Shown: in pieces, positions 3,341-3,470 of the stretch | How positions within the stretch are numbered: position 1 is the stretch's first letter | Layout of the letters: each line of letters opens with the position of its first letter | From: a virus | Lineage: Duplodnaviria; Heunggongvirae; Uroviricota; Caudoviricetes | Direction: 5' to 3' (one strand) | IMG/VR virus record: IMGVR_UViG_2671180454_000012 | Length of the DNA: 5,043 nt | The notes under the pieces: generated by a model | The model's database searches: none | The model's input: only the letters and a program-made list of their open reading frames with translations | Told to the model about the DNA's origin: nothing | Program-made: the position numbers and the translations under genes

Positions 3341-3394
3341 TGTCATACCAGCAAAAGAATTGACTAATTATTGCCACGCCAGCACAATTAAGAC

Positions 3395-3470
3395 TCATCA
3401 TTTCGGTAGTGGCAGTATCCTTTGTCGCTGACAAAGCGCCTCCGGTGGCACCATCGGGGCGCTTTTTTTT
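3395..3470 (+). ncRNA. Candidate small RNA (~75-85 nt), transcribed divergently from the head-gene operon
   Basis: Sigma70-like promoter TTGACT (3360-3365), 17-bp spacer, CACAAT (3383-3388); two stem-loops and a U8 tail downstream; no plus-strand protein gene available to be terminated. Prediction only. Confidence 0.3.
3436..3470 (+). terminator. Plus-strand rho-independent terminator
   Basis: GC-rich stem GCGCCUC (3436-3442) / GGGGCGC (3456-3462), 7 bp including one G-U, followed by T8 (3463-3470). Preceded by a second hairpin CTTTGTC-GCT-GACAAAG (3420-3436). On the minus strand only TTT follows, so it is plus-oriented. Confidence 0.6.

Follow-up and report, generated by a model that had tools for sequence, protein, structure and literature searches.

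We identify a compact promoter–terminator unit, which may plausibly be a new small RNA (sRNA) gene of Hfq-type build on mobile DNA, in a 5,043-nt stretch of viral DNA (IMG/VR record IMGVR_UViG_2671180454_000012; Caudoviricetes), hereafter the window. [quoted passage not shown] The unit lies on the plus strand within a 534-bp intergenic region (3272–3805), which also contains a run of N. The predicted non-coding RNA of about 75–78 nt spans 3393–3470, its start being placed from a −10-like hexamer and its end from a U8 tract. We estimate a probability of roughly 0.35 that the unit is a small non-coding RNA gene of the satellite, not of its helper phage, and that its RNA acts as a regulator in trans. 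That a discrete plus-strand RNA ends near 3470 appears slightly better than an even chance.

All credible genes of the window are read from the minus strand, in the order ssb, a terminator, the first cos packaging site (cos1), the antisense unit, a palindrome, a small gene and a protease–capsid gene, and the candidate unit is oriented against all of them. It occurs in just four body variants, types A, B (the type of this window), C and D, to which additional E. coli variants contributed point changes only. The case for the unit is built on its anatomy, strand specificity, conservation pattern and fixed context, together with the lack of coding potential and of a match to a known RNA family. 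An sRNA had been proposed here in a first-pass annotation of the window; its orphan promoter–terminator layout holds, with a hairpin optimised for the plus strand, whereas its internal stem-loops are not supported.

A tandem terminator specific for the plus strand

The 3′ end of the unit consists of a hairpin, GCGCC...GGCGC, at 3436–3462, followed by T8 at 3463–3470, which bears out the strong intrinsic terminator with U8 reported in the first-pass annotation (3436–3470). With its leading AAA, the plus-strand terminator (AAA, the GCGCCUCCGGUGG/CCAUCGGGGCGC hairpin and U8) occupies 3433–3470. Across the homologues, an 11–13-bp stem of −18.6 to −23.5 kcal/mol precedes U7–U9. The T8 tract doubles as the loop of a second hairpin, GGCGC/GCGCC, followed by TGTTTTTTGT with T6, forming a tandem terminator. 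This second, back-up terminator (GGCGC-U8-GCGCC, then UGUUUUUUGU) lies at 3458–3485 on the plus strand and is found in types A, B and C.

The structure is clearly directional. Folded as plus-strand RNA, the terminator reaches −22 to −23.5 kcal/mol, compared with −16 to −18 kcal/mol on the minus strand, where two G·U pairs of the hairpin become C·A mismatches and the hairpin is trailed by UUUG, UUUU or UUUA only (3–4 U). Read in that direction, the hairpin could serve as a weak terminator at best. In the natural variants L127 and L004, C-to-U changes turn G–C into G·U pairs, keeping the plus-strand pairing; variant L129 carries one mismatch in the hairpin. The plus-strand-specific pairing and the variants that keep it through G·U pairs show that selection, or at least construction, of the structure has been for an RNA of the plus strand. 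Since the pairing is specific to one strand, a bidirectional or DNA-level palindrome was rejected as the main explanation.

The window has a run of 152 N at 3486–3637, beginning 15 nt beyond the U-tract. The first-pass annotation had regarded the context as incomplete for this reason, and a plus-strand gene in the gap would have spoken against an sRNA. This concern is excluded by a public contig (L096, IMGVR_UViG_2663763456_000013) that is base-for-base identical to the window on either side of the N run and has 53 nt (AAATGCTTTCGGGAACGTTCCGGCGTCGAACAAAAAACAACCTAATTCGACAC) in its place. These 53 nt contain no gene and no ORF. On this comparison, the N run is a mask or mis-sized gap rather than a site of lost genes. 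Within the masked 53 nt, the homology to the phage cos region runs out, and there is also a near-palindrome, CGGGAACGTTCCGG.

The terminator is the sole statistically robust feature of the unit and is far above chance strength. This argues for another explanation, namely a terminator without functional RNA that would only shield cos1 and the upstream genes from plus-strand transcription of the divergent late-promoter region, any short RNA being a by-product. The position is suitable for such a role, as cos1's homology to phages stops within the masked 53 nt, at a point 28–45 nt from the terminators. Moreover, conservation and structure are both poor in the body of the RNA, no target was detected for it, and a promoter-like TTGATC-17-AATCAT at 3275–3303 could also supply transcription. 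A mere shield does not account for promoter hexamers and spacing that are kept inside a hypervariable block, and two terminators placed 75 nt from a conserved promoter form a typical sRNA gene layout. In addition, satellites of the L008 type, described below, do without a plus-strand terminator here. We regard this explanation as doubtful, and the unit would be ordinary if it held.

Promoter-like site and coding potential

The pair reported in the first-pass annotation, TTGACT and CACAAT separated by 17 bp, is present on the plus strand at 3360–3388. The −35-like hexamer TTGACT occupies 3360–3365, and its TTGAC is invariant in all sequence types. The −10-like hexamer CACAAT (3383–3388) reads CAGTAT or CAATAT in the homologues, among which its A2 and T6 and the 17-bp spacer never vary. 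Altogether, the five variants compared do not differ at any of seven key promoter positions or in the 17-bp spacing (P ~0.013, calculated post hoc against a background of 56 invariant columns among the 101 of the hypervariable block). The consensus score of the promoter is 9/12 in the window and 8/12 in the homologues. The further plus-strand site mentioned above, TTGATC-17-AATCAT, is our own reading and falls below the threshold of the promoter scanner.

The unit has no credible plus-strand open reading frame (ORF), in agreement with the first-pass annotation, which had seen no plus-strand protein gene for the terminator to serve. Comparing the ORFs of both strands revealed no conserved ORF across the unit. 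A small protein gene would have to be either the 35-aa plus-strand ORF from ATG 3324 or one of the minus-strand ORFs through the hairpin. The former opens in types A, B and C alike and begins in each with hydrophobic residues of similar kind (M-x-F-L-I), but it has no Shine–Dalgarno sequence, its length varies (18, 35 and 28 aa), indels shift its frame, and its likeness among types tracks nucleotide conservation. The minus-strand ORFs traverse the T-run of variable length and the indels of the hairpin. A coding function is thus very improbable.

Distribution and allelic variation

The unit was found in 144 of 5426 complete E. coli genomes (~2.7%), at 162 places that are all chromosomal and in no case annotated, and the carriers include Shiga-toxin strains of serogroups O157, O145, O111, O103 and O121. 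Further matches came from 33 viral and 5 metagenome contigs, with one of these matches due to chance. All 45 true copies examined (45/45) show the promoter-like site, the U8 terminator about 75 nt on and nothing coding, and all have the conserved region upstream of the small gene on one side and a cos site on the other. No phage homologue exists among 50,697 INPHARED records, which makes the unit satellite-specific. In line with this, a covariance model built from the unit (R1) matched nothing outside this PICI subfamily among 29 satellite and phage loci. Wider homologues were also sought through the capsid fusion protein in 185,579 species genomes. The 77 loci obtained, at most 63% identical and mostly true phages whose portal gene lies upstream, do not carry the unit, and model R1 found nothing in them.

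Variation is concentrated in a hypervariable block at 3346–3432 that takes in the spacer and the promoter and extends over the first 40 nt of the RNA at its 5′ end, with 50–73% identity against 85–96% in the flanks. Between types B and A, identity is 0.96 in the capsid fusion gene, 0.90 in the small gene and 0.89 in the late-promoter region, falls to 0.50 in the spacer, 0.73 in the sRNA promoter and 0.60 in the 5′ RNA body, and returns to 0.85 in the terminator and 0.92 in the cos region. Among alleles, the 5′ body is 60–73%, the terminator 80–85% and the flanks 85–96% identical, giving a pattern of a conserved 3′ and a variable 5′ part. Besides the promoter positions, TTAAG-CTC-TCAT and TTTGTCG are also kept within the block. 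The sharp edges of the block, seen in comparison with L002, L001 and L003, suggest that the alleles diverged long ago and their flanks have since recombined, or else that selection was diversifying.

RNA fold and 3′ module

The predicted RNA (3394–3470, 77 nt) folds with −32.3 kcal/mol (z = −4.6), a stability reached by 0 of 200 shuffles. Its 3′ end carries a U-tail of the Hfq type (7 or more U), with U8 in the window and U7–U9 in the homologues. The 3′ module of Hfq-binding sRNAs reportedly (Otaka, Ishikawa) combines a Rho-independent terminator bearing a long U-tail with a U-rich single-stranded stretch just upstream of the hairpin. In the candidate, the bases just upstream of the terminator are A-rich (CUGACAAAG; GUGUAAAAG in type A), and an invariant UUUGUCG stands 5–6 nt ahead of the AAAG that leads into the terminator stem.

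Rfam 15 scans of the window, of type A and of gap-free type B gave terminator-like best matches far short of the family thresholds, for example ctRNA_p42d with 19.7–23 bits against 50. A search of 8 million papers for the exact sequence returned no match. In type B, UAGUGGC is complementary to what we take to be the 5′ seed of RybB; the complementarity is absent in types A and C and is not relied on here.

Points that weigh against an sRNA gene

Several observations count against the reading of the unit as an sRNA gene. The promoter is weak, because the −10 of the homologues matches the consensus at just 3 of 6 positions (3–4 of 6 overall), and that of the commonest homologue (CAGTAT or CAATAT) falls below the scanner threshold. 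Promoter-like pairs of such quality number 3 in the window, against 6.0 ± 2.7 expected by chance. The hypervariable block reaches into the untranscribed spacer and may therefore reflect mosaic recombination instead of seed selection. The terminator, at 85% identity, does not exceed background, given the low overall divergence of the satellites.

The interior of the RNA is similarly weak. The two stem-loops that the first-pass annotation had placed upstream of the terminator are not upheld, as one is allele-specific and the other does no better than shuffles and is missing in type C. The CTTTGTC/GACAAAG hairpin is confined to the allele of this window. An alternative 8–9-bp helix occurs in types A, B and D, but shuffles of the variable region yield p = 0.22 for type A and 0.25 for type B, and the helix is essentially lost in type C. 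A conserved helix 1 was also considered on covariation grounds, with five pairs changed on both sides (0 of 500 shuffles) on a model-fitted alignment. This support was rejected, because all five pairs stem from the lineage of the window and a 1-nt register shift.

Neither targets nor transcripts add to the case. Duplex scans of the satellite and flanking helper DNA gave no target above the noise of −30 to −38 kcal/mol, and 8-mer matches to ATGAYGAG in the same DNA occur at about chance frequency. Literature searches brought up no evidence of transcription at the locus. Sakai, the strain with mapped Hfq-bound RNAs, probably lacks the element; only a few O157 genomes are among the 144 carriers, and the single Sakai locus checked, around EcOnc23, differs. 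EcOnc23 was the one length-compatible candidate checked (Sakai, Table S2 of PMC4104026); it lies between Sp14 tail genes and is unrelated.

Position between two operons and antisense readings

The unit stands at the boundary of the replication side of the satellite and its capsid operon, opposite in direction to both. Being transcribed against all satellite genes, its RNA would pair perfectly with read-through from the replication and cos1 side into the capsid operon. This raises the alternative that it is a cis-antisense RNA or convergent-transcription insulator, which would hold back minus-strand leakage from the replication operon and cos1 through polymerase collision, RNase III cleavage of the duplex and weak minus-strand termination, resembling lambda OOP or P22 sar.

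In NCTC9699 (L007) and 266917_2 (L008), a second PICI subfamily (~2560–2800) has nothing in common with the window here except the 53 nt that precede the small gene, and the slot of the unit is filled with ~220 nt that are unrelated and have a minus-strand terminator, GCCGGATTTTATCCGGC-T6, at their end. This slot may encode a different, co-oriented small RNA. The same 53-nt segment (3272–3324), shared with PICIs that lack the sRNA unit, is the only part matched in 123 E. coli genomes beyond the carriers. In E. coli O157:H7 F3113 (L009, 4852–17404), the satellite resides inside the terminase large-subunit gene of a lambdoid prophage in the same orientation, the helper-embedded arrangement described in PMC10111431. 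Late transcription of the helper would hence cross the candidate RNA gene in antisense.

The plain minus-strand terminator in the same slot of L007 and L008 suggests that a block to transcription is needed at this boundary, and makes the insulator a serious rival. The unit opposes all satellite genes exactly where the two operons meet, and the hairpin read on the minus strand still amounts to −12.8 to −14.5 kcal/mol, followed by UUUG, UUUU or UUUA. In helper-embedded copies, helper late transcripts, which would cross the satellite of L009 (PMC10111431), would be affected as well. However, a terminator after ssb already stands before cos1, the scan for minus-strand promoters gave none in the DNA upstream of the unit, and neither a gene nor a ribosome-binding site is overlapped by the RNA. 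For insulation, a simple minus-strand terminator would suffice, as in L008, whereas the hairpin and U-tracts are clearly optimised for the plus strand. Insulation as the role of the unit is on balance unlikely.

The slot of the unit corresponds to the position of terS, the small terminase gene, in a phage, and the unit might instead be a functionless vestige, a terminator captured in what remained of a helper-type cos–terS–terL–portal region after deletion. The cos1-to-capsid layout of the satellite equals the phage layout cos–terS...protease–capsid minus the terS-to-portal part, and TTTACA stands on either side of the hairpin module. Near the phage terS start position, the minus strand keeps GGAG...ATGA(C/T)GAGTCTTAA, with ORFs of 4, 14 or 31 codons. 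This terS-start likeness is weak and undetected by BLAST, and functionless DNA is unlikely to retain plus-specific pairing, tandem U-tracts and promoter spacing across four diverged types. We consider such an origin without function improbable. Minus-strand 3390–3425 reads AAAGGA...ATGATGAGTCTTAA (AAAGGAGTTTTTATCGCCAGGATGACGAGTCTTAA in type A), showing a faint likeness to the ribosome-binding site and start of phage terS (GGGGGAGTTATGGATCGTGAATTAA), and this stretch may be a remnant of a deleted terS gene.

A possible mechanism

If the unit is an sRNA gene, a weak sigma-70-type promoter would start the transcript near 3393–3396, and the plus-strand hairpin with U8, backed up by the second terminator, would end it at about 3470, producing an RNA of ~77 nt. 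The conserved 3′ hairpin and U-tail would form the termination and stability module, probably also the Hfq-binding module, and the variable, weakly structured 5′ 40–45 nt would be the base-pairing part. Base-pairing in trans with helper, satellite or host transcripts appears most likely. Promoter firing, RNA accumulation, Hfq binding and targets are all predictions from the sequence.

A more specific version can be formulated, in which an allele-variable RNA encoded beside the packaging site recruits Hfq through its 3′ module, whereas its 5′ part is tuned to helper transcripts (for example, terS or capsid) or to host sRNAs, so that the RNA becomes a determinant of satellite–helper specificity. 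We consider this version speculative and distinctly improbable. Were it correct, an allele-variable RNA would set the specificity of satellite–helper interference or the timing of the capsid, as an enterobacterial counterpart of SviR, the sRNA of the satellite PLE.

The late-gene regulation of PICIs and their cos1/cos2 packaging decision are poorly understood. An RNA gene at the boundary between cos and the late operon would add a post-transcriptional layer to the conflict between satellite and helper. To our knowledge, no sRNA has been described in Gram-negative PICIs, and literature searches revealed none either; we know of satellite sRNAs shown for one family only (PLE), besides the processed CI RNA of P4. 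At 130 bp, the unit can be deleted or swapped between alleles, providing a simple experimental handle.

Surrounding genes, cos sites and operator-like palindrome

PICIs are recognised by an integrase gene, an alpA-type regulator, a primase/replicase with adjacent origin, one or more cos sites, a size of ~10–15 kb and few or no virion genes. The window carries part of a primase gene along with TGAACAG iterons, ssb, two cos-like sites and a gene for the capsid. Full homologous elements in E. coli additionally encode an integrase, a helix-turn-helix regulator and Icd-like and DUF4222 proteins, and are inserted beside tRNA-Ile or within a prophage terminase gene. The gene annotation of these homologues agrees with the gene order of the window.

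On the minus strand, the primase fragment (4774–5043) comes first, followed by the TGAACAG iteron field (~4500–4750), an 81-aa ORF and ssb (3806–4228). Downstream of the primase gene, 4500–4750 contains dense direct and inverted repeats, GGTGAACAG and TGAACAGTT, as expected for a PICI replication origin; the iteron array gave spurious low-score microRNA matches in Rfam. In L001, L003, L005 and L006, the gene adjoining cos1 encodes a PerC-family transcriptional regulator (several alleles) in place of ssb. PerC/Pch-type regulators activate the pathogenicity island LEE (locus of enterocyte effacement) in enteropathogenic and enterohaemorrhagic E. coli, and satellites with a PerC-family gene may affect virulence regulation.

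Beyond the intergenic region, the protease–capsid operon begins with a small minus-strand gene of 64 or 75 aa (phrog_4934; 3044–3271), continues with the ClpP-like protease/major-capsid fusion (1180–3047, minus strand) and is followed by a minus-strand 93-aa ORF (phrog_1561), the last in gene order. In E. coli homologues, the fusion is a single 629-aa ORF, whereas here it is split into ORFs of 381 and 252 aa overlapping at 1902–1938. The 381-aa ORF is also found in the independent contig L088 and in L096, so the frameshift is real, either a pseudogene or programmed, and no read error.

A ~90-nt element occurs twice in the window, at 1085–1180 and 3700–3790, its minus strand reading CCACGGGGCGGG...CGCGGAAAAAGGCG. 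Together with ~150 nt beyond, it is homologous to the segment just upstream of terS (DUF1441) in the helper-type prophage of L009 and to the Rz–terS interval of phage CP-1639, and it is right at the cos-like motif that the linear genome record of phage mEp460_4F5 opens. These homologies and the start of the mEp460_4F5 record identify the two elements as the cos sites of the satellite. This assignment is in line with the model island EcCICFT073, in which two functional cos sites were shown experimentally (PMC6092414). The cos1 region (3638–3773, minus strand), located between ssb and the unit, extends into the N run; its cosN-like core CCACGGGGCGGGCGGTTCGCGG is the reverse complement of 3717–3738, and it retains a phage-like cosB including an IHF-like TATCAATAACTTA near 3659–3671. 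At the second site, cos2, which separates the capsid gene from the 93-aa ORF, cosB has diverged. The minus-strand terminator hairpin after ssb (GCCGGAGCAATCCGGC and U6) occupies 3774–3789.

On the other side of the unit, a palindrome (AAAATCAGA-N10-TCTGATTTT; 3313–3340) separates the sRNA promoter from the small gene. Of 45 copies, 43 keep it. Its centre lies ~67 nt upstream of where the sRNA is predicted to start, and it may act as operator for one of the divergent units or for both. The conserved segment upstream of the small gene (3272–3324, minus strand) is the presumed promoter region of the late operon. A promoter scan detected no minus-strand sigma-70 promoter for the capsid operon, including in 3272–3324, and the position given for the late promoter, from which the first-pass annotation had the unit diverge, is accordingly presumptive.

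Comparison with known small RNAs

The temperate phages lambda and P22 encode OOP and sar, RNAs of ~70–80 nt with their own constitutive-type promoter and an intrinsic terminator, antisense to the surrounding operon. The candidate is similar in its ~77 nt, its own promoter-like site and terminator, and its direction against the surrounding operon. Both OOP and sar lie across a defined gene or its ribosome-binding site (cII and ant, respectively), whereas the strand opposite the candidate is intergenic, where only read-through or helper late transcripts could overlap it. No homology to OOP or sar was found, and no INPHARED phage record matches the unit.

The CI RNA of satellite P4 is, like the candidate, a small RNA of an E. 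coli satellite, and serves as immunity regulator. It is processed from the leader of the early operon and pairs with seqA/seqC to terminate transcription. In contrast, the candidate is a separate promoter–terminator gene at the late end of its element. CI/seqA homologues have been reported in PICI Bro genes (PMC10111431).

A precedent within satellites is SviR, the sRNA of the Vibrio cholerae satellite PLE (Dunham, Angermeyer and Seed, bioRxiv 10.1101/2022.04.08.487710). SviR is conserved across the PLE family and exemplifies satellite sRNAs directed against helper or satellite transcripts, including structural-gene mRNAs. It belongs to another satellite family, with another host and a lytic helper (ICP1), is not known to be related to the candidate in sequence, and has been mapped experimentally with its targets, whereas the candidate is a prediction.

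A resemblance in build is seen with AgvB and AsxR (EcOnc01–03), anti-sRNAs of enterohaemorrhagic E. coli prophages with conserved 3′ and variable 5′ regions (Tree et al. 2014, PMC4104026). Like them, the candidate is a short orphan unit on phage-related DNA of pathogenic E. coli that ends in an intrinsic terminator, has escaped annotation, and has a 3′ region conserved and a 5′ region variable between alleles. AgvB and AsxR are 51–60 nt long, occupy a moron site downstream of PR′ in lambdoid prophages, bind Hfq and sponge GcvB or FnrS, whereas the candidate is ~77 nt long, lies between cos1 and the capsid operon of a satellite and is known from its sequence. By position and length, the candidate is therefore outside the AgvB/AsxR group, with which it shares the arrangement of a conserved 3′ and a variable 5′ part.

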